57,020 nucleotides of DNA from Perkinsus olseni (lineage: Eukaryota). The stretch spans positions 1-57,020 of the forward strand of contig JABANN010000174.1 of NCBI GenBank assembly GCA_013115125.1. The letters are read 5' to 3'. Of this stretch, positions 1,383 through 56,874 are shown one piece after another; positions within the stretch are counted from its first letter, which is position 1, and each line of letters starts with the position of its first letter. The position numbers and the translations under genes are program-made. Under the pieces are notes generated by a model, which worked only from the letters and a program-made list of their open reading frames with translations, was not told the DNA's origin and ran no database searches.

Positions 1383-3734
1383 CTATGCGGATGAAGTGGC
1401 CAAAAACTCGAGGAATGCCCCACGGTCGACAACAGCAGCGATCTGGTCATCATCACCGCCGACCACCGGCAGGCAGGGCTGCACATCCAGCTTGGTAGCA
1501 ACTTCCGCTAGGGAAGAGTCCATTCCCACCGTCAAGGGGCTCGGTTTATGCCTGTCCGAACGGGAAAAATGTCGCGCGCCACGAAATTACTGACACTTAC
1601 TTGCACTTGTCGAGAGTGAGCATTTTGGGCTCGTCAGCTGCTGACATTCGAGCGTACAAGTTGGCGATGGTGACCATCTCCCCTCCGCTGCTGAGCATGG
1701 CAACCTGACCGAATGGTCAAACGAGAATCTTCACAGTGCGGGAAGGTATCCTGCGGGTGCGCTAATAGCTGAAATCACACTGATCATCGTGATCCAGCTA
1801 TGAGAACTTCGAGATCTTCGAAGACTTCCGCAAGGATCATCGACCGACCGGCGTCCGCTCACCTCGGATGAGAAACTAGGGTCCTCTCGGGCAGCCGATC
1901 GGATTTTTTTAATACCATCGGCGGCCGACAGAGCCGGGCTGAGCATCAGAACCTTTGATAAAACTATTCCAGCTTCCTGCAAAGATACGCCACCCCAAGG
2001 ATTCTTCCGGTAGGTAGGGTAACTGAGGGGAGTAGCTGCTGAACCCAACTTGCCGACTGCAAGGGTCGACCTTGGATGCTCCTCCAGAGTGATAAAACCA
2101 TGAGCGAACATCCAGCCATCATCAAGGAACTGACGGCAGGAAGCCATCCTCAACAGCAGTAGCGAGGACAGCGCCCCCTACCTTTGACATGTAATTTCGG
2201 GAGGAATCCGGTAGCAACGCCACCACCCTCTTCCCCGCCATCTCCTCGGGCCTTTGCGACTTTATATACCGCACCTGAGGAGAAGCGGTCAAGTCGACTA
2301 CTCCCGTCTCCACGATCGTACCGCAGCAGCAACGCAGGTCCCGGAGCTTCCCCCGACGGTGAGGCCTTCGAGACGGATGAGCTTTCGAGCCATGCTCAGA
2401 GCCTCCGGGTCGCCAACCTTCATCCACTGGTCAATCACACTAGGATCTCGGTCGAGGACCTGAGAAGGTCGCAGGTTCGATCCCCGGCAACGACATCTCA
2501 GCACTACTGTTGGTATGAAATCATATCCGATTCCCTCAACTTGATACCCTTCCAACCTTCCAGGGTCATTAAGAGAGTCCGGAACCGCCAAAATCGATCC
2601 GATAGGATCCACGCCGACGACCAAACCTTGTCAAAAATCTCATCAAAAGCACAACACCCCCCCCTCTCCTTACACTTCTCCCCGAGCTCATCCTTCAGCT
2701 TCCTCGCTACTCCCGTAATAGTGCCACCAGTACCAGCCCCAAGGACCATCCTGACGCCTCCAAATTCGCTCGCCCACACTGAGAAGCAAACTTACACGTC
2801 AACTTTTCCTTCGCATTGGTCGACTATCTCCGCTCCCGTCCCTTCATAATGAGCCATCGGGTTGGCCGGGTTGAGGTACTGAGCAACACCATCATCAACG
2901 CCCCTCGTCCGGTGGTGCCAACCTACCTGGTCCAAAATGTGGCTTCTAGGGATCTCCTTCTGTAGCTTCATAGCCAATCCGATATGCGACTCCGGTGTGT
3001 TCCATGCGACCTCGTTCGGAGTACCTGGTCAAGATATGTACCCATGGCGAATCTTAGGTTGACCCTGGCGACTTACGCAAAATCTTGGCGCCGAGTGATT
3101 TCATCATGTTCACTTTCTCCCCGCTCATTTTCTCCGGCATGGTGATGACCATGTTGTACCCCTGAAGACCTCAACTCAAAGACGACGACGCTTCCTTCCC
3201 TCCTACTTTAATCGCAGCCGCCAGGCAGAGACCAGTACCAGTGTTACCGCTAGTGGGCTCAATCAGAGTGTCGCCCGGCCGGATCTGATTCGGGAAAAGG
3301 TTGGTATGCACGCATGCACATTTTAGCCTACCCTCCCTTCCTCCTCGGCAGCTTCGATCATCCTCAACGCTATCCTATCCTTAACGCTGCCACCCGGATT
3401 GAAGTACTCGGCCTTCGCCCAGAGCTCACCTACGGCCACCATCGACCAACAGCCAATCGGAAGCAGCCAACTTACAGGGCAAATCAAACTCCTTCATGAT
3501 CCTCTCCAGTTTGACCATGGGGGTTCTCCCGACCAACTCGAGGGCGCTGCTGACGACGCTGCCGCTTCCCGCAGACGAGGACTTCGACGTCCGACCGAAG
3601 ACGTGGTGCGGACAATTGTCGAGACCGTCGCCGACCTTCCAAGTGCACTTCTGAAGACCGTTATAATCTGGGAAGACCATCGGCTTCTGAGTGGTGCTGT
3701 TGGCGGAGGAGCTGCTGGTGTTCAGCGGCGACAT
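1383..3734 (-). CDS. CBS: Cystathionine beta-synthase (multi-exon), with N-terminal heme-type motif and degenerate C-terminal regulatory region
   Basis: Exons give [26 protein letters not shown] (PLP Lys), [46 protein letters not shown] and [12 protein letters not shown]. The last exon ends ...[10 protein letters not shown] at 1383. Confidence 0.92.
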
Positions 3735-3945
3735 TGATAGAAAAACTGCAAAATAGGTGAAGCCTGCTGCAGCAGCTTCAGTACTCCAAAATCGAACCAC
3801 TCAAAAACCGCTGCAAAAAAACTTCGCTCCGCCCAACCCCCCTGAATTAACTCAACTCGAGCCTCGATAATTCCATAAAAATACCATCGACGATACCAAC
3901 CCTCCTTCCAGTCTGCGAAGGCTCCTGGCCCACGCTGTACTACTG

Positions 3946-3982
3946 TGATGATGATGATGATGAAGATGATGATGATGATGAT
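3946..3982 (+). repeat. (GAT)n microsatellite
   Basis: gatgatgatgatgatgaagatgatgatgatgatgat just downstream of the M16 gene stop codon. Confidence 0.85.
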
Positions 3983-6549: not shown

Positions 6550-8675
6550 TCACGTGGCCGTCTTCCCCTGCCGTATGAATTCTCTGATAGTTGGCTCGAG
6601 CCACTCCTGGAGGGTTAGGTTGGGTAAGCGGCGCTCCAGGGTCCGAAGCATAGCCAGGCAGTGGAGGGCATCGGGCGCGGTGAAATATTGCATCCATCGG
6701 ACCAGCTCTCTCGAGCAAGCTAGACTTATACGACGGCATCGATCGTCCCTTTTGAGGGTGGGGAGGAGGTCCTCCTGTTGGTAGAGGTGGACCAGGCACT
6801 CGATCAGAGTCATGAGGGTTGGCGGATCGCAGTAGCGGCAACTGTAGAGCGTGTGGGAGAGGATACGATCGAGCCAGGCTTCGACAGCATCGCTCGGAGG
6901 GAGTCGAACGCCGTACCTGACACGAAGACGATGAGCGCAATGGGTATTCCTTCACCCTACTTGAGGGTCGTCACCAGATGAACCACCGGCCAGTCCACCA
7001 TGGCCTTGTCGGTGCAGTAGGCAGTGACGAGCTCGATCAGGCTGTCGTTGCTGAGCTGGAAGTGGGCCATGACGAAGGCAAGATCGGGTACACTGTGGCT
7101 GTCCCAGGCCAGAGCCTCATGCTCGGCTACGGTCTCGGCGAGGTTGCCCAGCGCTTTCGTGACGACCTCTCTAACACGCTCGGAATCTTCCAACTGACCG
7201 CTGATGGTGGCCAGAGTGAGGCCCTTGAGCATTCGCATGATGGCTGCTGGTGGCACCAGGGAGGTTGACTCTAACATCTCATGGGGTTCCAAGATACTCG
7301 CTGTTTTTCCGAAGAGGTCCGGCCATCGTTCGAAGGAGTATCCACACGAAGACAGCTCTCCCAAGCCGTTGAGCAGATGTGAAAGCGCTAAATATGGTAC
7401 CTGAAATTACGGTTTACCCAAACAGTCAACCAAAATAGCCGGGTGGTAGAGCAACCAGCTGTTAATCTGAAGGATGTCGGTTCGAACCCCGCAGCATACA
7501 TAATCGAATCCATCTATGCACTGATTGGCAATTAAATCAAAGAGTTCCTTATTAACCAGACCAGCCTTCGCCGCTGCTGTAATAACGTAAACGCTCGAGT
7601 TATAAAAATTGCAATTCGCCATCGCGAGGTCGTTGCCGATACACGACTGATACGACTCCAAAACCGTCCTCATCAACTCGTGGAACAGAGGCTGGTATCT
7701 GATCCACTATTCATCCTAACCACATGGAAGCAGCTCCCCACTCCGTGTTTTCCAGCTTAGCCAGAGCATTCAGGAGCTGCACCCGTTCGGTGACCAGCAT
7801 GTGGGCCGTCCTCCCCCGCATGCGTCTGATGATTCTTCCAATCAGCTCGTCTCGTATTTTAATCAACTCCACTTGATCCACATCACAGTTCAACACTTTA
7901 TTCCGGTTCACACAAATTGACAGAGCGTACCTCGAGGGGGACACCTCGACACATTAAATCTGCACGCATGCACACGCACATTATGGAACCCAGGTCCTCC
8001 ACCCTGTCAAGGTTCCTTCTAATGAAGAGTAGGAGATCCTTCGCCAGCGCCCCGTCCATCGGCCTATGCCCAGCATGCAGCCTCGCCAAAGTTCGGAAGC
8101 CCTCCACCACAAGATTAACGTCATCATACGACCGCCAATGGCGTTTGAACTGAGTAAAGACGCAGAAGGACTCATCAAAGTTACTTTCCTACACAGACCA
8201 CCAGAGGAGCTCGGGCGAGGAAGGCTGTGAATCACCAGCTCCACGACAACGGTAGAGCGATAGATCGACCGGAAATCAATCCAGCCGTGAAGCATTGTCT
8301 TCGAGAAAGTCAATGACAAAGATCATACGTAATCAGCAGTAATTATTGAAACAAAATGCAATCCAAAAATTAATATAATCGAGCCAGCCTTAGGATAGCC
8401 CCCCAGCCACCGCGTTAAGGCTCGCCCACTACCCTGGCTGTCATCTCCTCCACTTTGCCGAAGTCAGCCCTTTCCCCGTGGAACAGGTTCGGTATCATCT
8501 TCCGCATATCCTGCAAGAGCCGCGCATCCTCCCCTCGAGCAGGGGACAAGACAGATCGCATCCGCCGGGAGTTGGGCCCGGTGGAGTTGTCCCGGAGGGC
8601 CCGAGCCGCCACGCTGTAATTTCGTGGCGCAGTGAAAAGTCCCGCCGCCACTGATGCCTCCGCCCGAGCTAACAT
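6550..8675 (-). CDS. Hypothetical helical-repeat protein, possibly organelle-targeted (multi-exon)
   Basis: Chain of minus-strand ORF pieces separated by short GT-AG introns. Arg/Ala-rich N-terminus (MLARAEASVAAGLFTAPRNYS) and amphipathic helices such as VQLLNALAKL and LAFVMAHF. Confidence 0.6.
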
Positions 8676-10290: not shown

Positions 10291-10999
10291 CTACCGTGGA
10301 TGGCGTTTGATGCACGCCAGGGCAAGATGGACACTATCCTCGTCTCTGCTGGTCGCCTGCTGCTGTCCACTACTACTGTTGGGTAGGGCCATCCGACGAG
10401 GGGTGTCCTTGGGCAGGAAGGAGCGGATCCAGGAGGGTAGGAGGGATGCCAGGCCGCGAGTGGTGAGGAGGTGCCGTATCCGAGGAGAACAACCCGCCAG
10501 GAAACGAGCCCTCTCCAGCTCGTTGAGGTCGAAAAACTTCAGCGCTGACAAGCAGCAAGAGTCGAACGAATTTTCTGATGAAAAAACCGAAAATTCTCCC
10601 CTTCCTTGACTCACATAGCAAGCCAGCCATCATGAAGCCCATGGTGCTTCGCTTCAGCACGACCTCCAGGATCTCCAACAACGTCTTCTCGGTAAGGATC
10701 TCCCGCACAGTGTTCGACATGACGATCGACCCGCTACCACCACTTTCTGACACCTCTAGCCACACTCCCACCACCAGCACGATGGCCCCGACGGTTGAGA
10801 TGAGTAGACATAACCAGACTAGGGAGGGGACGACTGTTATGATGGCCAGGAGGACGCCGAGCAGGCCCAGGCCGACCCCGGCGAGTTGCAGGCGTCGGGG
10901 GGTAAGGGTGAATTCTGGTATGATTTCGAAAGGTGTGGTATGGCGTAGTGGCGGGGTGGCAGGCCGGGTGGCGGTGATGGCCGTGCAGGAGGTGGGCAT
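10291..10999 (-). CDS. Hypothetical membrane protein (3' end uncertain)
   Basis: ATG at 10999, two strong TM segments, intron at ~10567-10612 joining to ORF 10291-10614. Confidence 0.55.
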
Positions 11000-11205
11000 G
11001 AGGGAAGCCTACAAAAACAACGTATCCAGAGGAAAGGTGAAAATGGTCTGAATTTGGCGGAGCGAAGTTGTTTATAGAGGCGGAGCGAAGCGATTCATGA
11101 ATGAAATTTTGTCATTTTTTGGCTTGGACTTCTCGGATATCTATTTCGAAGCGTGTAAGATACAGAATATGTCAAGTTGATGCCTTTGAAGTTACATTAT
11201 TATGC

Positions 11206-11797
11206 ATGATCATGAGCAGAGTAATTCTCATATCTCTGCTGTCATCCTTGTTACTCTGCTTTTTCCAAGGCTGTGCCACCACCCGCTCCAACTTCACCCC
11301 GATAACGCCATCAAGGGGCAGCAATAGTCCGACCCCAACGGACAGTAACGCATCTTTCAACTTGCAACCGCCTTGCTTCAACCTTGGATTCCCTCAGATC
11401 CCCCCTACACTTGCGATGCCGCCACTCCTGCTGTTGCGGGAACTTATCGAGGCTCCTTCGAGGGCAGCAGCACTCAAGGCGTGTCACTACAATTCGCCCA
11501 GCCCAAGAAGATAGGCGTGATGGCTGGTAAGCCCCTTGACTTCACACCCCCTTCCTGCTACCCTCCCCTTCAGGTTCCTTCAACAGCTCCCCCTTCAGCT
11601 TCAGCAACATCTACTACGAGTTTGTATCAGGGCAATCTTGGTTCAGCCTTCGACCTTTCCATGACTCCAAAAAGCTGCTCTCCCTCTTCAACCTGCAGAG
11701 CATGGACCAGGTCCGGGTATACATCAACCACCAGTGTCAACCGATTCGGATCGACTTCGGCAGCACCGCCAGCGCTCCTCTCGCCAAGGAGGTGTAA
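11206..11797 (+). CDS. Small secreted protein, copy 1 of tandem pair (3 exons)
   Basis: Signal-like MSRVILISLLSSLLLCFFQGC. Introns ~11345-11397 and ~11527-11572 give PYTCDAATPAVAGTYRGSF...GSFNSSPFSFSNIYYEF...APLAKEV*. Confidence 0.75.
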
Positions 11798-16808: not shown

Positions 16809-19800
16809 ATGAGTTCGACATTTGCCGGGAAAAGTGAGAAATTTAGTTTGCTGATTGATCGTACGTGACTGAGCTGGGAAAGATACGAAGGAGACGTTGA
16901 GAAATTGGTAGAGAAGATTAGATCGCAAGAAGTCCTGTTGGCCTCTGTGAGGACCTCTGCGGCCAACTCGGCGAGGGAAGTGGAACGAATAACCGCGGAG
17001 AACCGTTCCCTGACTGACCGGGCCCAGGTGGTCGCCTAATGTCTCTGCCTCGCTCGGAGGGGCTCATGCAGGTACTGGAAGCGGAAGTGCGGAGCGTTAA
17101 TGCTGCTAACGAGGAGATGGCGATCGAGATCAAAACCGTCCACGGTGGGGTCTTCTCCTTCTCCTTATCTTGGATGCAGGGTTGGGGCTGTCAGATCTGC
17201 AAAGTCGAGTAGAGCATCTCACTGGCCGTTGCCAAGAATTGGAGGATGAATGTGATTCACTGCGAACGGCGAGGCACTCTGAGGGGGAGCGTTCGAGGCC
17301 TGTAGCGGACCGGACGGTGGTGGTTGACAGGTCGGGTCCATGCGCGTCCGCCAGTATTCATTGCCGTAGTGCTCAGTCCGCCGAAGACGACTGAGGCGAA
17401 GGAGCGTCCTGAGAAGGTGCCTGTTGGTGGGGCGATGGCCAGCCCGGGAGAGATCGAGGAGCTCGTGGGTCTGTTGGAGAAGTCGACCAGTGAGGTGGAG
17501 AGGCTGCAAGACCAAGTCGCGTTGTGGAGGCGACGGGGAGAAGAGGCGGAGAAGGAAGTGGAGAAGTTGAAGTCGGCTGTAGAGGAGCATCATCATTATA
17601 TTGAGGGTAAAAATGATGGGTGCCGGATTTGAACCGGGATTTGCATAGTACAACCACCGTTCGGACGAGATTGAATCCGCGAGGCTAGTTGGTTCAGCTC
17701 GATCATCTCTTCTTTAGATGAGCATTCCCAGCCGAGCTTCACGGCCAGTACCACACCTGAGTCGACAGGAATCTTCATGAACTCGTCGGAGGAGATCGCC
17801 AATGCTTCTTCCAGCTTGCGAGGGTCGATGGACTCCCACACAGCCGAGCGAGCTGAGAACGAGCTGCTCCACTTCCTGCTGGAGGGCGCGGCGAGCTCTC
17901 AAGAAATTGAGTCCATCCGGGAAGAGTTCCTGGCGACGGGGCCGACGGATGCGGCGGGGAGGAGGAAGTGGCCCTCGTCGATGATGACTGAAGTTAGCAG
18001 GCTTCGGTCGACGGTGGAGGCAGCAGAGGCGAATAGAAAAGTACTGCAGGGGAGAGTGAAGGAGCTCGAGGAGGAGTTGTCTGTCGAGAGGAAAGGGAAG
18101 GCGGAACTCGAGGCTCGACTGGAGGCGCTGAGCAGCTCTGATGCAGAGGCGGGGAAGCCGACTCTTCAGACGCAGATTAACGGAGGCGTAGCTACTGTGG
18201 TAGCACCTGTGGCTCGAAAACCAGTGCTCGCTGATATTGGTAGGCGGGCTGGGATTTCCGAGCTTGCCGCTGTGTGGATCGATGTTAGGGACCAGTCCTC
18301 TGAAACACTCGCAGGAGGAGGAGGGACGCCGCTGGGCAGAAGGATGTAGTCAGACTACACCAAGAGAGGGCTCCCCTCACCATCAGTGTCCGAGCGAAAA
18401 AGAACAAGGGGATGGCGATGATGATTGTACTGTTTGCTCTACAGAGGATTTGGCGTCTCTAAAGAGAGAAGTGAGGGAGGGGCAACGGATCGAGGTTGAG
18501 AGTATTTTGCGGTTTCTCTATCAGATTAGGCGGTTGAAGCAGGAAGCTGTGGAGTCGGCCAAGTGCGCTACCAATAAGCTCAGAAGTGCTCGAGACCAGC
18601 TGTCATCTCGGGAGGTGGATTTAGCTCGGGCTCAGCGGGCGGGAGAAATGGCGGGAAAACGGATAGAAAAAATGGAAAATGAATTGCGGGAGGTGACGGA
18701 GAGACTGCGAGAAGAAGCGGCGACTAGCGAGAGGCTCGAGACGAAGCTGAAGCTGATGGTGGCCCAATTGTCCCTGGCGAGGAGCGAAACCTCCGGCTTG
18801 CGAGATGAAGTGGTCCGCCGACGCAAAATGATGGAGAAGATGGACGAAAAGGAATCTAAGGTAGGCGCGTGAGACGCTCGCTGTAATTGATCTTGATGGC
18901 ACAGAATGCCGCCGAGTTGGAAGGGAGAAGTATGGCCTTGGCAGACACTGAGGGGCTGCTGTTGAAGATGGAAGAGCAGACGGCCAATTTGGCTGAGGAC
19001 ACGGAGAGGTTTTTGGAAGAGTAAAGAAGTCTCTACTGCTGCGGCCCTGCTACTCGTCATCAGATACTCCCGAGTGTGTTTGAATGAGGAGCGGGAAAGA
19101 ATGCTGAGTAGCGATCTGTGTGGTCATCTAATCCGTGCTGAGGAGCGTCGGCGGACAGCTGGGGAGGATGCTGCGATGGAGGAAGGGATGGGCAGGGAGC
19201 GGAGGGAGATGATCAGAGAGGACCGGGAGTCAACTTATCGGAGGGAGTATGGTCGGTTGAGGTCGACAGCTGGTGATGATCGGTGGCTCGCGGAAGAGCA
19301 GCTAAGGACGATCAAGGCCCGGGAGGTAATGCTGTCGTCTAGCTGGGAAGGGCGATGACTTCATAACACCTCGAGTGCAACAACGCATTGGGGCGAATTT
19401 ATCTTGTGCCAGGGTGCACAGTCATACCACTCCTTTCGCTTATCATGTTCCCTTTTAATAGGCCGAGCTTGGTAGTCTGCGATTGGAATTGCGTCGTTGT
19501 CGAGAAGAGTTAGCTCAACAACAGCAGCAGGAAGATGTCGTGGTATTTGAGGTGAGACCACCAGGCGGTCACGGGATAGTTTTTCATCGTGTCCACAGCC
19601 CGAGTTGGTCTCTCGACCGTCGTCAACAGAATGGTCGTTTTCACGAGCAACCGACGACTAGCTGGGTGAGCCTCGCCCCCCCCCCTTCCATACTAAATCG
19701 TTGCAGTGCTAAATCGACCATGGCGATTCATGATCATCCAACCCGTCTGTCGCCTTGTTATCGGTTATCGCTCTTCTTGTTATCGGGCATGCTCATGCGG

Positions 19801-28291: not shown

Positions 28292-30921
28292 TCAGAGATC
28301 CCTTTCGGCCCGGGCGGCTCTGATGGCTCTCTTCAACTCGCCCGCGGCGAACTCGAGCTCAGCGGCAGTGGACGCTCGTAGTCGTCGAGTGATGAACTCC
28401 CCTCGCCTCTTGTAGCGCAGTATGAATACTAATGATTCTGATAAGTTGAAGCTCGATCGGCTGGAGTTCCGAGGAGGAATGTGCACTCGGTTAACAGAGA
28501 GCAACTGAGGGACGACACCGATGGTCACCACTGCTGGCCCGCTGGAGGACTCACCGGGATGACCTCGACGGCTGAGGAGAGGTCTCGATGGTAGGCCTCC
28601 TCTCTGGTCACCCAGCTGGCTAGGAAGTACATCAACCCTGCGTCGTCACTTCGGCCGCTTTCGGTGTGGAAGATCCTGTACCAGTAGGGGGTCCTGACGG
28701 AAGAGATACGAATGGTGTGGTATGGGTACATCGGATCGGCATTAAAGGCACCAGCAAGGATCGAACCCTATACCTCACCCTACTAAGTCCCGTGTTCTAA
28801 CCACTAGACCAATCGAGCTTGTGTCCTACCAGCGGCCTCCCTTATCCGAGTCCTTCTCCAAGCACACTACGAAGTTGTCAGCGATCGATCTAGTATCCTC
28901 AAAGGGACATGGTCTAACACCGAATGAGCGCTCCAACGAACGACTCTTCCCGTTCCTCTACCCACATCTTCGGGCGCCGAGTCATCAGCCACGGGCGGAC
29001 AGCTCTCTGTATAACAACAGCCGCCCAGGAGTCAGGGTTGATCCATCGGACTACCCCTCGCAGCCACGACGACATCTAAAAATTACAAAAACTCTAGCGG
29101 AGCGAAGCTGGGTGAAGAGAATCGTGATCATCACCATGCTGTTCTTTCTGCTGGGCATCAGTTTCACCCAGGCCGAGCTCGAGAGGACGCGGTCGCGGAT
29201 ACCTGCGATTCGATTTTTACGAGGAAGTCCCCCGACCCTCGGCCGACGGCTACTGTCTGGCAGTTTGCTCAGCATCCTCTCCGTCAACTTGGTCGAGTAC
29301 AACTCTTTCAGAGGCATCACCATCCCCCAGGGTATCTTTGACAGGAGGTTGACCTAGCAATTGCACGCATGCACAAAAGATACCTTATTCTCGGAGTTCC
29401 ACTTCAGCCAGTGCCTCTCCTCGACGATACCAAGGTCCTCCGCAGTAAGGAGCCACTGCCTGCCGACCAACCAGTCTCGTATAGGGCCGCCCAGCTCAGG
29501 GCGTATATCCTTCTCCACGAGTATCTAGAGGTCCCCGGTTCGAATCCCAGCGCCGGTACTTTGCCAAACCTTCTGAATGGCCTTCGCAAGCGGGCACGTT
29601 TCATTGGCAGCCTTCCTTCGGCGTTTGAGCATACTAAGGAAAGGTAACATGGTTACCCGACCCCCACAGCTCACCCACGCCCCTACCGTAAAATCCATCG
29701 ACTCACAGCCAGCATGATGGTCCTCCTCGCGACCTTGTAAGACGCCGTGCTACTCGACGCCGCCGAGGATACGCTACTCCGGTGGGCTGAGAGAAAACGA
29801 TCCCCCTGTTCGGTACACCAATTGTGAAATTTAGGATCGATTCTGGAACTGATTTTTACACGCTCGCTTCCAGAATCAAGTCTGAGATCCCAAATCAGTT
29901 CACTTAACACTCAGCGATCGTCCTGTTTCCCAGAATGGCGAACTCACTGAGGATAGGCCTTGGACCATCACCCATACTCCAGGACATCGTAGAAGCCTGT
30001 TCGTAAAATTCAGGGCAGTCCCGGAACTCCCCATCCTCATCGTCAGGTCGGTAGACGAGCATGTGGCCATCTCTTCTCATTAGATACCGTTTGTAGCACT
30101 CCGCTATGGTCACGGCCGCCCACCTGAGGTCGAGAAAGCGTTCTTGGAAGCTCCTCGCGGCCACACGGAAGCTCCCCTCTGGGAATACCACTTTCTATGA
30201 AAAAAGCGAAGCGAAGTTCCATTGCTTGATAGAAGCTTACTCGACCAAGCCAAAACCGTCCTGCTCTTAGCCAAACAAAAGAGATTCTTTTTTCCAACTC
30301 TTCCATGATTCACGCCCAGCCTACTTTTCCTTGTGGCGGTTTTTCAATTTTTCCATCGCTTTTTTCCTCTTACTCTTCCTGTCCCCCAGAATTTGCAGCC
30401 GAGCAACGAAGTCGGACCGAATGGCCGTGACCTGACCACCTCCGAACCACAGCCTGGCCGATAGATCACAACTCTCACCTCAATATCCCGAACTTGCTCC
30501 TTGAGCGCTTTTATCAATTTAAGAGGAATCCCCCATCCTTCCAGGACCTCCTCAGGGACCTACTCGTCATAATTTCGTGGCGCAGTGACGATTGATGCTC
30601 CCTCCGTTCGATAAACCGATCCAAAACTCAGAGTCGCTTCCAGAATTTATTTTTACGCGCAAAATGACGCGGTTTTGGAATCAATTATGAGTCTCAGAAA
30701 TGGCTCACTGACAACCAGATGCCGACCTTGGAAACGTCGTGATGATTTTTTATCCACTGCTTGTGATAGAGGACTTCCTGATAAGGTCGAATTTCGTACC
30801 GGTGCCGACTGAGCTGCCGAGAGCACCGGTCGAGGAGAGCGTTGAGGGACACTGGACGAGAGGACACTGTGGGGTCGTTCGAAAAAGCAATTCTGAAACT
30901 CGGAATCGATTCTTGGACCAT
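28292..30921 (-). CDS. Hypothetical protein with N-terminal SAM-like segment (multi-exon)
   Basis: ATG 30921; spliced WIKNHHDVSK-VPEEVLEGWGIPLKLIKALKEQV resembles a SAM helix set. Chain of minus-strand ORFs ends ...RAARAERDL*. Confidence 0.5.
28748..28818 (-). pseudogene. Degenerate tRNA-like sequence (A-box and B-box)
   Basis: Reverse complement GCTCGATTGGTCTAGTGGTTAGAAC...AGGGTTCGATCCTTG. A/B boxes are at tRNA spacing, but acceptor and anticodon stems do not pair. Confidence 0.5.
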
Positions 30922-31757
30922 ATTTTGGGTTTAGAAAGAAAATCCAGAGTCGATTCTCAGTCCAAAACTACTGTTTCGAACAAAGTGTATGTATAGTAAT
31001 TGGTGTGGCCTTCAGAGGAAGAATCATCCCCGCTCTTCCACTCAGAACGCTGTTAAGGTGAGGAATACAGTTGGCGTATCCAAGGTTGACCCATGCTCTC
31101 GACAGAATGAGAGAAGGATGCTAGAGGTAGGGGCATGCTAGCGCTGTTACTCCAATCGCTAGTGACGAAGCTAGCACGCATGCACATCGTAATCGTAACA
31201 ACGACCTCGCGCTGGCAACAAGTATACTATAGTCTGGTTACTCTCAGGAGGGCCCCTCCGACTGGTGACGATTAGGGAGAGTTGTGGTAGTAGGAGGTAT
31301 CCACGATAGTGAACTCAGAATCAGTTAGCCCACGACCTTCGTAAACATTGATCTCAACCAGACGAATGTCGATCAGCCTACCCTGAGGGGGACAGTGATC
31401 ATTTAGCGCGGAAAAGTGCCACCACCGGGGATAGAACCTGCGGCCAACCGCTCGGAATTCGCTTGTTGTGCATTTAGGTCAATTGTGGGTTTCCTTTTTT
31501 CTTGCATTGCGCTGACGACCGAGCGGCGGCGAGAAGGAGAATCTTCGATTTCACCAAGGTTGGAGGGAGGCGAAACTAAGGTCATGAGTGATGGGAAAGT
31601 GTATCCTACGTTGAAGCATGCAAGATACAAAATAGGTCGGGTTGAGGCAGGTCGCACGAATATCGATCAGCACATATTTTACTTTTATATGGGAAATACA
31701 CTCGCTTCGATCGAGTCCAGCTCAACAGTCTCCAGGCTAGAGACTTTCAGCACCAAC

Positions 31758-34495: not shown

Positions 34496-37209
34496 ATGCT
34501 ACTCTGGCGACTACAACCTCTTTTATACTGCCTAGCACTCCCAGCCGCGACAGTTGGTGAGTCGACAGCGCTGCAGATGATCTCGGAGGCGGCTGGTGCG
34601 GGACGGTCCATTCGGGACCTGGTTACTCCTGAGGAGATGGAGAAGTGGATGAATAACCAATGGTGTGGTATCGTTCGACTGCTGCTTGACTTTAATCCCA
34701 TCTTCCAGGTGGGATGCGGCTTTGGCCGCCATCAAACTCGACCATGAGCAGCAGCCGACCAGCGGCAAGCGGACAGACTACTTCGGTCCCCCCGTCCGAA
34801 AGGCGGCACGCGAGATCAAGGCTCGGGCAGACGAGCTAGTGCGAAGCCTCGACCAGAACTACTTCAAACCGCAGCGGGTGGCGCCGGCCTTCCAGTGGGC
34901 ACAGAACGATACTGCCGTTTTTATCAATGTTAAATTCACTCGACGATGGAACGCTCCGGGAGCGCTCGATATTCGGCATCCCGAGGTTAACATTACGGAT
35001 AGTGGGATCCAAGTAAAAGCTATAGGAGAACATTCTGGTGAGGATTGAAGTTGACCTATTCTGTATCTTGCACGGGTGAGCTGAAGATTCTCAGGCAAAA
35101 AGCATGAGTATATTCTAAAACTCGGGTTTTTCGATGAGGTTGACCCTACCCTGAGCAAGTGGGCTATGGCGTCCGTCGGGAAGTTGTCGGCGACCCTCGT
35201 CAAGGCCAATAGGAGAAGTACTTGGGAACGGCGAACGTGCAAAATTGGGGAAGTCCGGGTTAGGTAAATGGCCGCGGCTGTTGGCGTCGAAGGAGAAGAA
35301 GGTGAATAACATGCACTACTGGATGGACTTTGCCGAAATTCACGAGGAGAGTCTGAAGGGGCTGCCCACGCCCAAGCACAGTCTAGTCACTTGCCGACTT
35401 GTTAAGAAGGCCTATTGTTTGGGAGAGGATAAGTGTGTCAGTAGTTGTGCAGATGATTGTCGAGGTGGGGAAGGTCGGGGGTTCGATCCCCGGTTGAGGC
35501 ATTTTATTGGCAGGTAAATTGTTCACTGGACCTGATGGGAGGTGCCTTGGCAAGCCGCAAGAGGAAGTCTCCGGCGTCAATTTTACAGATTCCGATCCGA
35601 AACAAGGATTCATAGGCGGAATCGTGGAGGTGCTTGACTCTACCTTCTTCGTATCTTACACGGTTTAACCTAAGATACCTTGGTCAGGTCAACTCTACCG
35701 CCACCTTCGGCGATGCCGAGTTTTTCTCGATATATTTCCTCGACGAGGACAATAACAAACTGTCCGACCAACCGATACTGAGAATAGAGAACCCGAAAAG
35801 TCGGGGCACCAACCTCTCCGGAAAGATACCACCCTCCACGCCCATTCCCGAGGAGGCGAGTAAGATCACAGCAGTCCCGGGCAACCTCGCTTTCGGCGAA
35901 CCTGACAGCCAAAGGGACTTCGCTCCGTCGTCATCATCGCTGTTGGATCTGGCTGTGCCGACTTGTACGCCGCAGGTGAGTGGGGTTCGTCGATGTGTTG
36001 GTCGAATTGTGGTATCTTAGAAAATCGACCTCGAAGATACCTCCCCAGAGGTCGGCCAGTTGGGAGGAGACGTGAAGATATCTTTTTCTGCGCACGCGGA
36101 AGATTCCGCTTCTCCGACGGTTGATTACTACACCCTTCACTGGGGTCGGACGGCTAACAGCTGCGAGCGCCTGCCCGGCGGAAACAGCTACATCGTCCGA
36201 GTTCGGGCGAAGGGGGTTGGGGAGGTGCAGCATCATATCGGTGAGTCCATTGCCATTGAGAAGGGGGCGGAGAGTATATTGGCATTCAGTCAGCATGAGA
36301 ACACTGATGGTGAGGCCGTGGGTTCGATCCCTGGCTGCGGCATTTTCAGTATATCTCAGGCCCGCATCCGTCCAAAGGCGAGCTCACCTCCTCGTGTGCG
36401 ATTTGGCCCATCAGGGGTCGATCGTCCCCGTCCAAACCTCCCCAGGGCCTGTCAGTCCTCAACGGCCAACTCCTGGCCAACGGCAGTCGTTTTTCCGGTG
36501 AAGTCATCGTAAAGCGCGCTGGGCGAGGGGACGAGGTCGCCGCCGAGGCAACAGCATACACGCTCTGGTGGTGTGACGATGACGAGCGGAAATTGAGTAG
36601 GGCTTTCCGATGACGGTCCCGATGAGAAGCTCGAATGCTGCTCTGTTCCTGTCAGGTCTTCTTGACTCTCCCAACATAGAAGATACTACCGCGGCAACTG
36701 ACTTCAGGTAGGAGGATTCTCACTAGGTTTGCTATCCACCCTCGAAGTTTCGGTACTCGTTCGTTTTACCGTCACAGTAAACTGAGAGAAATACGACTGG
36801 AAAAAATACCAATGCTTACGCTAAAAGTTTTTGAAGGGGAATAGTGTCGTCCTGAGCGGACGAAAGGTTTGCAATTTCTTCGGTACCGTCGCGAGTTGCC
36901 TCGGGGGCAGTTCCCAAGCCACGTTAAGGTTCCCCTTCTGGGACTAATAGAATTTCGCCCGATGATCCTCCAAAAGCGTTTCAATAATCGATAACTCTTC
37001 GCCTGCTCCCTGCAGCCCTTCTTCTGTCAGACTCGTCTATGAGGAGGTGGAAGTGCCCGAGAAAGCTTCTAAGATCTGCGCATTCATGAAGAACGATTTG
37101 GGGGAAGGTCGACAAGTACACTCGAACGATCATCTCCTCCCCTCCGACTTGGTCGTTTCAGGGAGCCGCCGCGGCTGTGGTGTCGGACACGGCAAGAGAT
37201 GAACTTTAA
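34496..37209 (+). CDS. Signal-peptide CS (p23/HSP20-like) domain protein with probable RDEL ER-retention signal
   Basis: MLLWRLQPLLYCLALPAATVG signal; PAFQWAQNDTAVFINVKF...KWPRLL CS-domain motifs. Splicing 37116-37161 gives ...SDTARDEL*. Confidence 0.75.
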
Positions 37210-37325
37210 TGGCATCCACTTCCTGTCGACTCGTTTTTTGTCACCTTCCGAGGGGTCGTGTTACTCGTCAAATCAACACCCTCATCGATGAACTAACATC
37301 AACATGAACAACAAAATGAACATCA

Positions 37326-38648
37326 TTAGCCCCTCACCGTGGACCTCTCGAAAGCGCGGCAGTCCCCTCCCGAAGTGTAAGTCGCCTTCTCCTTGTCATG
37401 GAAATTAATTTCCATCCTCATCATCGCCTTATTCTTTACAACCATACTGGGCAAGGCCAAGGTCTCAGCCGACCTCAAACTGGCCAGACTCCTGCCCGCG
37501 GATGATTTGCTCACGATCCTCAGCTCAGAAGCATTGATGACAATTTTACCCATTTTGGGACTGTAAGTAGCGACGTAAACGCCCTCGTAAACTTTCTTGT
37601 GTCCCATCACCGTCACAGAGCCGTTCCTTTTGAAGGAGAAGGTGACAATGTCGAACTTCCCTTCGTCGGCGGTGAAGTCACAATCCATGCGGACCCCATC
37701 GCGCACACGAACGCGATTAACATCGTAAAAAGCACTTTCCCATTGGACTTGTTTATAAACATACTCGTCTGGTTGGTAACAGTATTCGTTCTCTTCTTTG
37801 ATAATCAGTGTGAGTGGGTGTAAATCCAAACTCGCGTCCTCAGCGATGAATTGGACGATCCCAGCGAGACTTTCAGAACTGGATTTCTCGCACTCCCGCA
37901 AAGTTACTTTATTATTGGCTTTCACTTCGTATCTACAAGTCACTTGTTCATTTTTATCATTAAAAATATCAACTTTTCCGTCCAAGTGAAAGGAAATATC
38001 CCCAGTCTTCCCGGTGAAGGTGCAGTCCATTTTCGTTCGGTCTCTACCAAGGCCCACGCAGTACCCCGGCTCCTCACGCAGCCTGCCGTGCGTGTAGACA
38101 TCCGCCGGAGGTTTGCAGTACTCTCCCTTTATGCTAACTTGCATCTTGTGTAAATCCAGACTAACCCCTCGGTCGAAAAAGTGTCTGCCGTATTCTCGAA
38201 TAATCCTTTCACAGCGATTGCTCTCATCGTGATGAGGATCGCTCAGTATCACTTGTACGTTATCATTATCTCTGATAACGCCGCTGTAAAAACAACTGTG
38301 GGGTTTATCTTCTTCAGTGTAAAAGGTGACCTCGCCGGTCGGTCTGAACTCGATCATTCTCACCGACCCAGCTGGGTACTGAGGCGTGTAGAAAGCCGCA
38401 TCAAGAGTGAAGCCAGAGGCAGTAGGCGAGATGTCAGGCCGAGCGTAGGCCAGGGAGGTGTACTCGGACAACGAGCAGGGTCCGAGGCCAAGGGAAGGAA
38501 GACCGGCCATGGAGAAAAGCAATGCCTCTGCCGGGGATCGAACCGGGGACCTTGGATTCACCGACGCAACACAACGATGAGCAAAAGCTATCAATATCAT
38601 CGCATGGCGACTACTACTGACAGTGATACAACCAATCGTCACAAGCAA
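37326..38648 (-). CDS. Lineage-specific protein with about three diverged internal repeats, possibly secreted
   Basis: 440-aa ORF with recurring units EYCKPPADVY...MDCTFTG...SFHLDGKV and EYCYQPDEYVY...MDCDFTA...SFKRNGSV. True start uncertain. Confidence 0.65.
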   Translation of the reverse strand: MLVTIGCITVSSSRHAMILIAFAHRCVASVNPRSPVRSPAEALLFSMAGLPSLGLGPCSLSEYTSLAYARPDISPTASGFTLDAAFYTPQYPAGSVRMIEFRPTGEVTFYTEEDKPHSCFYSGVIRDNDNVQVILSDPHHDESNRCERIIREYGRHFFDRGVSLDLHKMQVSIKGEYCKPPADVYTHGRLREEPGYCVGLGRDRTKMDCTFTGKTGDISFHLDGKVDIFNDKNEQVTCRYEVKANNKVTLRECEKSSSESLAGIVQFIAEDASLDLHPLTLIIKEENEYCYQPDEYVYKQVQWESAFYDVNRVRVRDGVRMDCDFTADEGKFDIVTFSFKRNGSVTVMGHKKVYEGVYVATYSPKMGKIVINASELRIVSKSSAGRSLASLRSAETLALPSMVVKNKAMMRMEINFHDKEKATYTSGGDCRAFERSTVRG

Positions 38649-46851: not shown

Positions 46852-47692
46852 CGTTCCGGGGCGGCGCTGATAACAGTGAATCCTGAAAAGGGTGAATCGG
46901 AAAAAATCGCTCACGTGGCCTGTGAACAGTGAATGCACAAGCGCGCGCCTGGAAAGTCCGCGACCCGTGAAGTAGAACGATGATATGATGAATTCGTATT
47001 AGGGATCTGGCGTAATGGTTAGGGCTCAAGTATAGTCAACGGTGGATTGTGGGTTCTATTCCACCCTATTCATTTTCTCGGTTTGTCGGATGACTCACGC
47101 AATTGAGGAGTTTGAGTACTACCCTCGAGTCGATAATGTGCAGGCAGACACCAAGTGCACTGGGGCGATCCGCAGTCACTATGGGAGAGAAAACCAAACT
47201 ACATTAGGGTTCAACGAATGAACCTTCCACGAAATTCTTTTTGGTCAAGCGGATAAGCGTCGCTGCTGGCATCTGTAAGACCCAGGTTCAAATCCCGCTA
47301 ATGGCGCGGAGACATCGTGATGGGGGACTCGCGCGCGGAGCGCGCGGGCTTGTATGTATTGACATGCCTTTCGCGAGCGGCTCGCGAAAGGCATGTCAAT
47401 ACAAGCCAGAGCAGAAAAATGTTAGAAATCCTGCGCTGGGATTTGAACTCGCCGCCATACTGTCATTATGCACGGGACTCAACGCCATGGCGAGTGGTCT
47501 AGTGAAGAGAGCCGAAACTTTCGGTCCGAAAGCGAGCGGGTCTACATGAACATGTAAAAATGGCGAGCGCACTTGGCGTTCACCGTTTTTAGGCTTTCAC
47601 CGGTTTTAATGAGCGATATTGTAACAAAGTCGGATTAACTAACACTTCACCATTATCAGGATTCGCTGTTATCAGTCGCACCGTTCCGGAAC
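46852..47692. mobile_element. Degenerate non-autonomous TIR (MITE-like) element
   Basis: Left end gttccgg...ctgataacagtgaatcctgaaaagggtgaa; right end reverse complement gttccgg...ctgataacagcgaatcctgataatggtgaa. No ORF with transposase motifs. Absent from the paralogous A-B spacer. Confidence 0.6.
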
Positions 47693-48228: not shown

Positions 48229-49700
48229 ATGCCTCGGCAGCTCCCCTCCATCTGCTATGGGCTGATACATATAGTCTGGTATGGTCTGGGCCTACCTACC
48301 ATTAACGGGACCGGCATAGAATCGATTTATCCAGTGCTTTTCTGCCGTCCGATCTATCCCGAAAACGCCGTCACCGATGTGTGTCTTCTGGCCTTTTGGT
48401 ACCACCCGCGTTACTATATGTTCACTCTCAATTGGGCTGTTTTCGACCGAGATGGTGACGAGGTTTTATCCAACTACACCGTTATCGAGAAGAAATCGAA
48501 CATAACCCGCCGCCCCAGGGTGGCATCAGATGATCCCTTCACCACGGAAGGTGATATCATAATACCCGAAACATGTCCCATCACTGTGCTGGAGCAGGGA
48601 GACACAGCGAACTATATACTTGTTGATGATACTCGTAGGCTAATCGGTTCGCGATCTGGATTGGAAGAAATGATGTACCGGAAAGAGAACTCAAATCGGT
48701 CAAGGATGAGTGAAATCAGCAAGGACAGGACACTGCATTACTATCAACCAGGACGTGAAGATGTCGGTTTCATCGTCAAGGACGGCATTGTGACTGAGTT
48801 GGAGAGGTTTGACGGATCGATTGAAGAGGGCGCTGAGTTCACGTGGCACGACAAGCTCCCACAAGCCTCGCTACCGAGGCTGGACGGCGACATCAGCATG
48901 GTCTTTGTAGTGAACCGCCTTTTCAATGATTGCCTACTGTAATACGTTATTGTGGCCGATCTGTCCCCATGGCCTGTATAGGGCAATGATATCTTAGCAC
49001 TCTCTGTGTATTGTCTCTAGCGTGAGGCTAGTAGTTACTATTGATACCCACGTTGTAATGTATGGCTTATTTAAGAAGTATCGAGAGTTTAACCCATTTC
49101 CCCTATGTCACAGTTTCCGTCGAGTTCTAAGGGTGGCGAGCTTCCTGCTGTCTCTAGTGAACGGTTTGGTCAAGCCGGGAACACTACACTTATACCGAAC
49201 ATGTAGCCGGGAACACATACCGTATTATATGATCCACATTATAAGAAGTGAAGAGGGAGAGATGATCAAACTGGAGGCCTATAAATGGTTAGGGATGGAC
49301 ACTGCCATACCATACATGGTCTCCGATGTTTCAGGGGTGGACCACGACAGACTCTCAAATGGGCCAATCCATAAGACCTCCGCTCGCAAGTTCTGCATCA
49401 CCATTGCCTGTTTAGGTTGTTCCCAACGCCAAAATTTCGGTAATGACTTTGATTTCTAGAGAAGACCTTTTATATGACTTTTGAGTATCTTTTTCGTAGG
49501 TCGGCGAGCAGACCTCGCGGGAGTGATGATCTCGGGAATCCACCGCCCAGGTGAGTGGAATCCACTCAGTGGATAACACGCTCGCACTATGCACACCATC
49601 ATCATCTCAGTTACGAGGAAACCATGAGCCGCGATTCCCTACCTAGTACCGCACTTCAGCGAGAAAGAAGAGAACGATCACCGAATCGCTCTCGTCCTAC
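48229..49700 (+). CDS. Secreted 'FCR' family protein, type B copy 2 (interrupted by ~310-bp insert, possibly a pseudogene)
   Basis: Near-identical to 43418 up to 48906; homology resumes at ~49217 (IPYYMIH...EAYKW). Confidence 0.55.
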
Positions 49701-53760: not shown

Positions 53761-55043
53761 GCCCTGGAGACCGACGTCTGAGGACTCACAGCTTGGTACT
53801 GTTGCGGTTGTTGTTGTTGCCATTGCCGTGAAGGCGTTACCCCTGTTGAGTTGGAGTAGGTATGAGCGTCGGCGGCAGTTGGCCACTGATCCCCACCTGT
53901 GGCCGATCACCCTCAGAGTTGGCAGCAGACTGTAACGGCAGTATTTTCCCGAGAGAATGACACGAAGTCGAAGGACTCTAACGATTGATCAATCTTAGCC
54001 ACCCTCACCTTCAGGCAAGCTCGGTATGAGTTAGGTCAGAATCAACAGTTGATTGGATGAAATTCATGCTTCGTAGTTGATTATCAACTTCGAAGCGTGA
54101 ATTTCAGGAAGTAGTTAAGAGATTTTCCGTCGTTAGACGGTGGTATGCGTTACACAGCATCCACGGCTTGACTGGTGAATGCTTTGAAGACATTCGAATC
54201 ACTCACAGTGAAGCGCTACCCGGTAGGGAGAGAATTGACGGCATCCTCATTGATGGCTCAGTCCTCGTCACGCGTGACGCAACACCAGCCCGAGCGAACA
54301 GAGCCCCTCCAGGGCGAAGAACCGAGCGTGAACATCTCCAGCAGAGACTCACTTGGCAGTCACACGAAATCTCCATCTCATCATGTGGTAACTTCGACCA
54401 CAGATGCCGGCAAACCTGAGATAGGATTCCTGACGCCCCGCTAGGAAGCATGAGCCTTACTCTCAACAGGACCTGTCGAACAGGTCCTCAGTGACCCAAA
54501 ATCATCCACCTATCGGGTGGAGCCAGTTCTGCAATGAGCCCCGACGAGCTGGCTTGTTTTTAGCTTACGGACGATTGCTAACGTTGCGGACTGTAAGTCG
54601 GATCATATATGTCTTGTTAAGTTAATAACAACAACCTTGTTAATAACTCCAAATTGAGGAGTTAGCTTCGTTATATTGATGAGGGAGCGATCAGGCATCG
54701 CGTTCGGAGACTCCGGCGGCCGGCTCACAACGACGGTTTCACGGGGTGCGTTGTGGCGATTCGCTAGGAAAGAAACAGCAAGTTGCCATCCGCCCCGGCA
54801 AGTCATGGCGAGATCCTAAAGAGGATTTCGCACCCTCACCGAACAGCGTCTCTTGGCGGAACCATCGACCAAGAGGGAAGACGCGGATCTTTTACTGTGC
54901 ACGGCCCGATGCATAAGGGACTAACCAATCGAGCTCACCAACGGCCGACCGTCGACGAGAGAGTCAGCCTTCCCAGGAGATTGGACGATTTCGCGAGCCA
55001 CTTGAAAAACACAACCGAAATGAAAACGAAGATGCTGGTTATA

Positions 55044-56874
55044 TCAACACTTTCGATTTCCGACAGAATCTTCATAAAACACAACTTCGCCCGAGGACTT
55101 TTCCCTGGCCTCCTGAGGCTGCTGGGACGAACTGTCGAGGAAGGATATCAACTGCCGGGCTGCGTTGAACTTCGCCTCCTAAAAATTAAAATCCAGCAAG
55201 CAAACACCCTAGCCGGGAATCGAACCCACGACCTTGGGCCGTTTCTTCCCACCTTCCCATCTGCCGCTACGCCTACGAACTCTCTACCGTCCAGGCAGTC
55301 CGTGCTCAGCAGCGCTCTGAAGATGGGCGGGACTTCACCCTGAAGACCCACATGATTCAGCCGTCGTGCGTTTCCTCTTACCTTGATGGTTTCGACACGC
55401 CACTTAAATTTCCCAGGCGACTTTCCGGCAAATTTCTGCAGCCTCGTATTAGCCTCGCCAATAGGGTTCGTATGGCCGGCCAGAATTGATCTCTGGATAT
55501 GCTCCCCTGAGATTCAACGATCCCTTGGGAAACACAAGCGAGGGACCGCTACTCTCTGCGGCCGGTAGATGGGTATCGATCTTCTCCAGTGCGTACTTAG
55601 CACACGCCCGCTGAGCGTCCTTCTTGCGAGTCACCCAGGGGCCTCGAAAACTCCTTTCTGTCCCATTCAAAGGGAACGTCGCCGAGGCCGAAAACTGCAA
55701 CGAAGAAACTTCGCTCCGCTAGCACAGTACTTTGAAACCTCACCAAGGGCCTTGGCATCTCCCGAGGCATCATCTCGAGGAACTGCCAGGTAATCCGTCG
55801 GGCGTCCTCGTCGGGCGTCCCACCGTAGGTCTCGACCGTCCTGATCAGACCGATCATCAGCGCCCCACCCTCTCCCGTGTCAAAGCTCACCTCTCTAGAA
55901 TCTGAAGGTGAGGTACTTTGTTATCTTCTGGTCGCCATTCGATAACCTCTTCTTTGTGCGTTCCAACGGAAACGAATTGTCTTGTATCCTCGCCGGCTGC
56001 TGTGCTTTCATATGGCTGAGCTCTTGGTGTTTTCTCAGCTATAGGAGATCTCACCGGCCCAGTGGTCTAACGGTTAGAGAACATGTCTACCATCCGCCAA
56101 GTCCAGAGTTCATTTCCCATCGAGACAAATGGTTACCTACGGCGGGGGCAGCTTCCTTCCCGTCCGACAAAGCCTTTTGAACCTGAGTCGCCAAGCATAC
56201 TGGAATCTCATTTGTTCCACTCGAATGATGATCTCAACTAAGAATTCCAATCGATCATTGTGAAACCGTCGGGAAGCGTTCGATAACAGAGAGTATCCTC
56301 ACCTCCATCAGCAAGCCCACCGGAAGCCCCAGAGGGATCCAAACTTTGTAGTTAGAGGCCAGCAGCGCCTCCCGGGACGAGATGGCGTTGGTCACCAGGG
56401 ACTCCACCATCTGAAGTAAAACCCGCAAAGTCCTCGCGTAACCTCAAGATACCATCGTCGTCCTCGAATCTTATATTTTCCGCCAGAGATAACCATCAAC
56501 GACTCGAATGTTGAAATGAATGAACTCCCGATTCCTGCGGGTGCCCGGCGGCGAAATAAAAGATCTCCTTAACAGCGCCGCGATACCGCATCTCGCCGAA
56601 TTCACGGTGATGTCCGACCTCCCGATAGAGTAGTTCTAAAACCTAGAGTCGATCCTGGAACTGATTTTTAAACGTAAAATATGGTTCTGCAATCGATCTT
56701 GAGTTTCCGAATTGGTCTATTGAACGGGACACCATCACTCACTTGCGAGATCTCCGCATCCGACCGCCCTCTAGCCTTCATTCTCAAGGACACAGCATCG
56801 ATAACCTCACCCCCGTGCAGCCCGTCCGACATTAAAATCAACTGTCGCTCCAATTCAATTGGAACTTCCAGCGT

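Follow-up and report, generated by a model that had tools for sequence, protein, structure and literature searches.

tRNA-Gene-Derived Mini-Elements as Probable Constituents and Creators of Short Spliceosomal Introns in a Contig of Perkinsus olseni

The contig JABANN010000174.1 of the clam parasite Perkinsus olseni (assembly GCA_013115125.1) was analyzed over its positions 1-57,020, a stretch of 57,020 nucleotides (nt) that we refer to as the window. It contains twelve copies of a short core of about 31-36 nt that reproduces the 3' part of a transfer RNA (tRNA) gene around the B-box, the internal box of genes transcribed by RNA polymerase III (Pol III). Eight of the twelve cores are located in GT..AG introns of 45-136 nt that belong to six or seven different genes, four of them in sense and four in antisense orientation with respect to the host. 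The explanation that we favor, and that we consider probable, is an introner-like one, in which the cores are mini-elements derived from tRNA genes that make up short spliceosomal introns and probably also created them.

Results

A tRNA-like core is shared by twelve sites

The box pattern GGTTCRANYCC was searched on both strands of the window, using 100 dinucleotide shuffles as a control. Exact matches were found at 10 positions, i.e., 2474(+), 7479(+), 17625(-), 21908(-), 29537(+), 35480(+), 36321(+), 38534(-), 47285(+), and 55216(-), compared with a mean of 0.68 and a maximum of 5 matches in the shuffles, none of which reached 10. This result bears out, within the window, the enrichment over shuffled sequence that a first-pass annotation of this DNA had set as a check. 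All the boxes listed in that annotation are present in the sequence, three of them as one-mismatch boxes, namely GGTTCGATCCT at 28757(-) (listed as 28758), GGTTCTATCCC at 31428(-), and AGTTCAAATCC at 47439(-); the list omitted the box at 21908(-), which belongs, as its T-loop, to a genuine tRNA-Ser(AGA) gene. Taken together, one-mismatch boxes show no enrichment over chance in the window. They comprise 18 matches, of which 4 are opposite-strand echoes of family sites, and the other 14, including the 3 family members, compare with about 15 expected by chance.

Excluding the tRNA-Ser gene, 9 exact and 3 one-mismatch boxes define the core family (n = 12), whose consensus, aligned on the box, is AAGGTC-NNN-GGTTCGATCCC-CGG-NNNN-GGCA-TTTT. 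The A, G, and G at positions -8 to -6 from the box are found in 9, 10, and 11 of the 12 copies, the C, G, and G located 3' of the box in 9, 10, and 8, the G, G, C, and A of the following block in 10, 8, 9, and 8, and a T in each of the four subsequent columns in 9, 9, 7, and 7. The AGG(T)C motif lies 4-8 nt 5' of the box, the distance from the T-loop to the discriminator A is 13 nt, and a T-run stands directly after the discriminator in 9 of the 12 copies. This layout corresponds to that of a tRNA gene read from its variable loop (AGGTC) onward, comprising the T-arm, the 7-nt acceptor strand, the discriminator, and the Pol III terminator, with CCA being absent. The extension of the boxes as a tRNA 3' part, which had been noticed previously, is thus real by the column counts over the 12 copies.

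The cores share 65-85% identity with each other over 34 nt (repeat family D13 in this single window), and some of them have further details in common. Copies 2474 and 31428 both carry an unpaired GCAGG..CCCGG, copy 36321 resembles 55216, and copy 38534 resembles 29537, suggesting that templates that were already non-functional have been copied.

A-box-like motifs at tRNA spacing were found in two copies, compared with 0.025 expected: TGGTCAAGCGG at 47242, 43 nt upstream of the box at 47285, and TGGTCTAGTGG at 28811 for the box at 28757. At such spacing, an A-box-like motif is present in only 2 of the 12 copies, plus a weak thirteenth site at 56063. The tRNA 5'-half or A-box pieces reported earlier at 28811 and 47242 hold as such, and the one at 56063 (TGGTCTAACGG) extends across the acceptor of a 70-nt intron, part of it being exonic. 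This thirteenth, weaker tRNA-like stretch (56050-56136) has a two-mismatch box, AGTTCATTTCC, near 56107 and lies antisense in the intron 56067-56136, in the same gene as the core at 55216; the 5' part of the stretch belongs to an exon and codes for TTGPV.

Eight cores are located in introns

Four of the core-bearing introns (2460-2507, 35465-35513, 36310-36359, and 55179-55252) are established by protein homology or annotation, and four others (those with the boxes 7479, 17625, 28757, and 29537) are predicted from reading frames.

The core 2465..2500(+), with the exact box 2474, is antisense to a cystathionine beta-synthase (CBS) gene and makes up nearly all of a 48-nt GT..AG intron (2460..2507, -) that is delimited by a gap relative to homologs. 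The open reading frames (ORFs) that flank it carry a PALP domain, and the ORF that runs through the core aligns to solved CBS chains, with the in-frame 16-residue translation of 2460-2507 corresponding exactly to a gap. These 16 residues are absent in 119 of the 120 CBS homologs that cover both flanks, a set obtained from ORFs called on unspliced contigs. No Perkinsus relative was found among these ORFs of unspliced contigs in the length range searched, the best match having 57% identity.

Two exact-box cores, 35471..35506(+) with the box 35480 and 36312..36347(+) with the box 36321, are sense to the same CS-domain gene and are contained in introns of 49 nt (35465..35513, +) and 50 nt (36310..36359, +), respectively. 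Both introns are missing from the annotated P. olseni protein P0001 as well as from the P. marinus ortholog P0003. The junctions (marked by a slash) are CADDCRG/KLFTG in P0001 and CADDCEG/KMLTG in P0003 for the first intron, and HENTD/GPHPSKG and HDNTQ/GQHPSKG for the second. In run X10, an aligned piece shows a difference at 36417, at a distance of 59 letters from its end, which would fit an exon piece starting at 36359. A search of metagenome contigs for the orthologous locus using P0001 found nothing. The fourth intron of this group, 74 nt long (55179..55252, -), contains the core 55200..55235(-) with the exact box 55216 in sense orientation, and it is skipped by P0124, a protein from another P. 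olseni assembly, with the junction VAADGK/EAKF.

Three of the introns predicted from reading frames contain full-length tRNA-like stretches. The core 7470..7505(+), with the exact box 7479, is part of a degenerate one and is antisense to its host, in a predicted 99-nt GT..AG intron (7401..7499, -) where one open junction frame joins two long ORFs. The core 17609..17644(-), with the exact box 17625, also belongs to a degenerate full-length stretch and is antisense to a coiled-coil gene whose predicted 111-nt intron (17607..17717, +) has a single open junction frame. The core 28741..28776(-), with the one-mismatch box 28757 and the A-box-like motif mentioned above, is sense to its host in a predicted 136-nt intron (28694..28829, -), again with a single open junction frame. 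The predicted 45-nt intron GTTTGG..CTCTAG (29525..29569, -), which contains the core 29528..29563(+) with the exact box 29537 in antisense orientation, has two open junction frames and is the weakest of the eight. RNA cover or joints for 28694-28829 and 29525-29569 were not found among the rows listed, in a region of low depth covered by one run only. Single-ORF Pfam searches detected no informative domain in the ORFs around 7479, 17625, 28757, 29537, and 55216, and the ORF 29907-30194(-), belonging to the host of 28757 and 29537, gave three weak matches among representative proteins, none of which maps to the window. A brute-force test for GT..AG pairs with open frames was dropped, since 300 of 300 random control positions also passed it, and a codon-usage scan for coding frames was too weak to place exons.

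The four remaining cores lie outside introns. The core 31412..31447(-), with the one-mismatch box 31428, is found in the 276-nt spacer of a divergent gene pair, and an acceptor-like CCCCCTCAG/G follows it about 30 nt downstream. The core 38518..38553(-), with the exact box 38534, lies between tandem genes, 12 nt upstream of the ATG located at 38510, and the upstream gene's 3' end is given by an RNA contig from 38640. The cores 47276..47311(+), with the exact box 47285, and 47423..47458(-), with the one-mismatch box 47439, are convergent, and the stretch in which they lie shows no clear coding signal. A perfect palindrome with 24-nt arms and a 1-nt gap (47355-47403), contained in a 73-nt hairpin, is located exactly between these two cores; its scores as a microRNA-precursor look-alike in Rfam are weak and far below threshold.

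The previous statement that most of the boxes fill a short intron in either orientation stands for 8 of the 12 copies (four well supported and four by reading frames). Of the 4 copies outside introns, 38534(-) had been assigned to an intron, and it lies instead between the 3' end of one gene and the start codon of the next.

The element is nearly the whole intron

In the introns of 45, 48, 49, and 50 nt, only 2-6 nt on the 5' side and 11-17 nt on the 3' side are left outside a 31-nt core, and thus the core and its T-rich tail are nearly the whole intron. Sixteen of the 19 verified introns without an element measure 42-62 nt, and RNA contigs from four public runs (region 21001-41000) contain many GT..AG joints of the same 42-62 nt (15 of 39 joints are listed). 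A core that landed in an older intron would give at least about 80 nt. Since the core and the tail span the shortest introns, these cores did not land in an older intron, for which there is no room. The case for intron creation is based on this length argument and not on enrichment in introns.

The splice signals also adjoin or overlap the element. In sense orientation, the T-run and the bases that follow it form the pyrimidine tract and the acceptor (GGCATTTTATTGGCAG/, GGCATTTTCAGTATATCTCAG/, and ..TTTTAATTTTTAG/). In antisense orientation, the donor adjoins the 3' end of the core, and the donor GTAAAAA at 17607 is the reverse complement of the terminator T-run; for the antisense cores 2474 and 29537 the acceptor adjoins the AGGTC end (GACCTTCTCAG/ and GACCTCTAG/). 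The equal numbers of sense and antisense copies, together with the four copies outside introns, fit an insertion of DNA and not reverse splicing. The eight core introns do not show any special folding, their z values ranging from -1.67 to +0.91 compared with -2.79 to +1.40 in fifteen element-free introns. Relics of GTTCGA were found 4 times in the 19 element-free introns versus about 1.4 expected (p ~0.05), which is too weak to claim.

An intact tRNA-Ser gene, and the cores as tRNA genes

The genuine tRNA-Ser(AGA) gene (21897-21978, -) was identified by ARAGORN and scores 59.1 bits with the Rfam tRNA model. It is most likely contained, whole and in antisense orientation, in a 168-nt GT..AG intron (21858-22025, +) preceding the last exon of its host, as suggested by the in-frame junction PREE/VHSS. 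The aligned piece of an RNA contig (record 11 of X7) ends at 22024, with 125 letters of the contig unplaced among the rows listed. The introns thus form a size series that runs from 168 nt, with the intact tRNA-Ser gene, through 99-136 nt, with full-length copies that are degenerate, to 45-74 nt, with 3' parts.

The twelve cores are not tRNA genes, the criterion being a score above the gathering score of Rfam RF00005 (29 bits). When the whole window was searched with this model at E up to 1, which is the covariance-model coverage for seven of the copies, tRNA-Ser alone matched. Slices around 28757, 47285, and 47439 gave no match at E up to 10, and in searches restricted to the core, 35480 gave none and 38534 gave a 5'-truncated, non-significant match (model positions 38-71, 9.7 bits, E = 6.9).

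Other short repeat families coincide with introns

A repeat search of the window found that at least two unrelated short families, plus several smaller ones, coincide with verified introns. The second family has an internal inverted repeat, GTATCTT..AAGATAC, followed by AGAATAGGTCAAGTTGA, and occurs in introns and spacers in both orientations. Its motif GTATCTTRCAYG has 6 matches with up to one mismatch versus 0.44 expected. Its copies 32321-32357, 35041-35078, and 35642-35678 lie in the verified introns 32318-32379, 35038-35094, and 35630-35687, and further places are 11136-11185, 12326-12375, 31601-31650, 40666-40703, 9813, 22883, 31076, 3046-3089, and 25025-25068. The third family (D10) consists of GCTTCGCTCCGCTAGAG on the minus strand followed by a T-rich tail. 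It is present at 26678-26718 and 27129-27169, matching the verified introns 26675-26722 and 27118-27166 of a V-ATPase subunit C-like gene, and also at 29078-29118 and at 34067-34107, the last of which is in an RNA-covered exon and may be due to chance. Smaller repeats that link verified introns with other sites are I14 (38954-38983 with 30571-30600), I7/I11 (27632-27666 with 34492-34526 and 24263-24291), and D17 (28699-28723 with 33420-33444, 34647-34671, and 10917-10941). The best non-self BLAST match reaches at least 28 bits in 6 of 16 short element-free introns versus 3 of 38 exon controls (Fisher p = 0.014). Judging from these repeats, the introns of this contig are made to a notable degree of dispersed mini-repeats, which corresponds to the introner picture and requires no B-box.

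The genome of P. olseni is intron-rich, with spliced leader (SL) trans-splicing and very short introns. A one-exon protein search retrieved the 100% identical "hypothetical protein FOL46_002348 [Perkinsus olseni]" and a P. marinus ortholog. Loose 5' letters of RNA contigs, ..TCTTGGCTCA, were observed at the gene starts 31669 and 33060 (+) and 40149 (-). The Perkinsus spliced leader PmaSL1 is given as ACCGTAGCCATCTTGGCTCAAG (PMC3101222), and these letters match its 3' part, so that SL trans-splicing takes place at these sites in the three genes. Local segmental duplications, 72-95% identical, link 11203-11875 with 12400-13748, 42058-42486 with 45860-46288, 43493-43986 with 48328-48812, and 19058-19228 with 20948-21148, so that several genes of the contig are tandem paralogs. 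Near the end of the contig (56871-56961), about 40 G, a GC-rich stretch, and then about 17 G are found inside or beside a minus-strand ORF, which may be an assembly or sequencing oddity.

Discussion

The results presented above suggest a route by which tRNA genes may have given rise to introns. A dispersed family would have arisen from tRNA genes, each copy keeping the 3' part with the terminator T-run and a few also keeping a degenerate full-length body. Its copies would be confined to the non-coding DNA of the contig and, when located within genes, would be removed as ordinary GT..AG spliceosomal introns. Most likely, a whole or partial copy of a tRNA gene was inserted in a coding sequence and became an intron, for which its T-rich tail may have been suited in both orientations, serving in sense as the pyrimidine tract before the acceptor (GGCATTTTCAG) and in antisense as the donor (TTTTTAC read as GTAAAAA). 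As candidate ways of spreading we propose the retroposition of 5'-truncated Pol III primary transcripts or the capture of gene fragments at breaks. The idea, already present in the first-pass annotation, that tRNA-derived mini-elements seed or occupy introns fits the geometry, the filling of introns of 45-50 nt, the two orientations, the probable tRNA-Ser intron, and the presence of unrelated short repeats that fill other introns of the contig; the occupation of introns is observed, and their seeding is what we infer from it.

Several observations weigh against this explanation. No RNA joint across any of the eight core introns was found among the 15 of 39 joints listed. The share of cores in introns (8 of 12) is highly unusual compared with the whole window (p = 1e-4), but it has p ~0.10 when compared with a rough 44% intron share of the non-coding DNA. 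The T-stem is not maintained: its pairing holds in 66.7% of the cells versus 71.7% in shuffles (a value at least as high was obtained in 476 of 500 shuffles), its three outer pairs are formed in 3, 8, and 6 of the 12 copies, and there is no covariation. The core-only searches with the tRNA model, non-significant for 38534 and negative for 35480, belong here as well. The marks of a recent transposon are missing as well, since no likeness among the copies was found outside the 31-36-nt core (80 nt upstream and 60 nt downstream), and no target-site duplications were detected, flanking direct repeats being at chance level in 11 of the 12 copies and at p ~0.01 in one. Terminal inverted repeats and near-identical copies were not seen in the window. 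The copies hardly differ in the box and in the blocks AGGTC, CGG, and GGCA, whereas positions 49-51 and 66-69 vary freely between them. Finally, a tail of decayed copies is absent: a profile of the core gives at least 12.6 bits for its 12 source copies and tRNA-Ser, and at most 4.8 bits for the next best site. An intact box with no decay tail suggests either a constraint on the box or a very recent spread, and it is not predicted by simple pseudogene decay; the copies may be young and derived from several source lineages, or the box may be constrained.

A constrained box is what would be expected if the cores were extra-TFIIIC (ETC)-like sites, where the B-box is kept by Pol III-free binding of TFIIIC in gene bodies and spacers to organize chromatin or to influence Pol II, the tRNA ancestry being merely the source of the sequence. 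The box is intact even though the T-stem around it is not kept, it persists in full-length tRNA-like copies that fall below any covariance-model hit, and half-decayed copies were not seen. The independence of orientation fits a site acting at the DNA level, and there are two copies within 5' flanks or the spacers of divergent genes. Conservation is not limited to the box, however, but includes AGGTC, CGG, GGCA, and the T-run, which a B-box site does not need, and known ETC sites are intergenic, whereas 8 of the 12 copies are in gene bodies. Moreover, the other intron-filling families of the contig have no B-box, and thus TFIIIC is not needed for intron-filling repeats. We regard such sites as a quite unlikely explanation of the cores. 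Introns and spacers may also simply be the only places where ordinary tRNA genes and pseudogenes are tolerated, the pre-existing introns having shrunk back to about 48 nt after insertion and the 3' part being what a search by the B-box reveals. The real tRNA-Ser gene in its predicted 168-nt intron, the series of 168, 136, 111, 99, 74, and 45-50 nt, and the non-significant intron share among non-coding placements agree with this possibility, and the ascertainment by the box is real, as illustrated by the tRNA-like stretch at 56063 with its two-mismatch box. Yet on four occasions the shrinkage would need to have stopped just where the core and the tail reach exactly from donor to acceptor, few decayed relics were seen, and six copies have one consensus that includes an unpaired T-stem (GCAGG..CCCGG in 2474 and 31428), which points to the copying of a non-functional template and not to the separate decay of different tRNA genes. 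On balance, we consider this alternative unlikely.

It is highly improbable that the cores function as tRNA genes of an unusual kind (split, permuted, or multi-intron) or as small intron-hosted Pol III transcripts. Their T-run follows the discriminator as it does at Pol III genes, and ARAGORN draws cloverleaves for six of the sites when its thresholds are set to 80%; the same relaxed threshold, however, yields 43 "genes" in the window, so that the six cloverleaves are noise. The Rfam tRNA model finds tRNA-Ser alone, the T-stem lacks covariation, and the acceptor 5' strands, as read from the sequence, are not complementary. Chance, or codon usage inside exons, has in its favor that several boxes lie in long stop-free frames, a consequence of the G+C-rich sequence, and it is refuted by the fact that 0 of 100 shuffles reach 10 matches and by the absence of the core stretches from homologous proteins. 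The origin of the cores as tRNA-gene-derived mini-elements that became introns is, in our opinion, the explanation that best accommodates these data.

The cores resemble several known systems without coinciding with any of them. With tRNA-derived short interspersed elements (SINEs) they share the tRNA ancestry, the internal B-box, the dispersal in both orientations, and a varying 5' extent with a common 3' end. In a SINE, however, the tRNA-related part is a 5' head containing the A and B boxes, to which a common body and a tail are joined, whereas the P. olseni cores are the 3' part of a tRNA gene ending in its own terminator, with no common body and with an A-box-like motif in 2-3 copies. The extra-TFIIIC sites of budding yeast and the chromosome-organizing clamps of fission yeast are few and intergenic. 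Like them, the cores have a B-box without a functional tRNA gene; unlike them, 8 of 12 are intronic and have further features of tRNA genes, and any binding of TFIIIC would be putative. tRNA genes nested in introns of protein-coding genes are common in animals, and the tRNA-Ser gene (21897-21978), in the predicted intron of a plus-strand gene, is a similar case. It differs in that, in this compact genome, it makes up about half of its 168-nt intron, and its degenerate relatives nearly fill introns of 45-136 nt.

The closest parallel is that of introners, described as intron-generating mobile elements in Micromonas, Aureococcus, fungi, dinoflagellates, and Amoebophrya (PMC9860276, PMC12130899, PMC7789003); those of Amoebophrya carry inverted and direct repeats, with P. 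marinus being used for comparison only (PMC7789003). As with these introners, dispersed repeats form entire short spliceosomal introns in unrelated genes, whichever way they are oriented, copies exist outside genes, and there are several families per genome. Unlike in these introners, the part common to the P. olseni copies is only about 31-36 nt long and derives from tRNA genes, and target-site duplications, terminal inverted repeats, and near-identical copies are missing in the window. The terms tRNA, SINE, and Perkins* are absent from the main texts of the two large introner surveys (PMC9860276 and PMC12130899), whose supplementary tables may list Perkinsus. No paper pairing "tRNA-derived" with "introner" was found in full-text literature, and search listings on tRNA-like or SINE-derived spliceosomal introns and on P. 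olseni genome papers returned nothing on tRNA-derived introns. Within the literature searched, there is no earlier description of tRNA-derived introns in Perkinsus.

A more ambitious version of the favored origin, which we put forward tentatively and with some doubt, would be a Pol III-derived intron generator. Its unit of 45-50 nt, i.e., the 3' third of a tRNA gene with the B-box and the terminator, would be copied throughout the genome and spliced in either orientation, the B-box being kept for the spread or as a TFIIIC site. It would be the first introner of tRNA type, and one of several families behind a large share of the tiny introns of this lineage.

For genome annotation, relaxed tRNA finders will call the cores, and gene finders may take the in-frame 48-nt CBS intron as coding. 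The origin of introns is a long-standing question, whose best-documented source so far is spliced-out transposons, the introners. In the cores, the terminator of a piece of tRNA gene serves additionally as the pyrimidine tract in sense orientation and as the donor in antisense orientation, and the intact tRNA-Ser gene, which is most likely intronic in the same contig, provides a possible starting point of the size series. If the phenomenon were genome-wide, a Pol III gene would be added to the sources of Pol II introns, and Perkinsus, which is culturable, would become a system for the study of intron gain.

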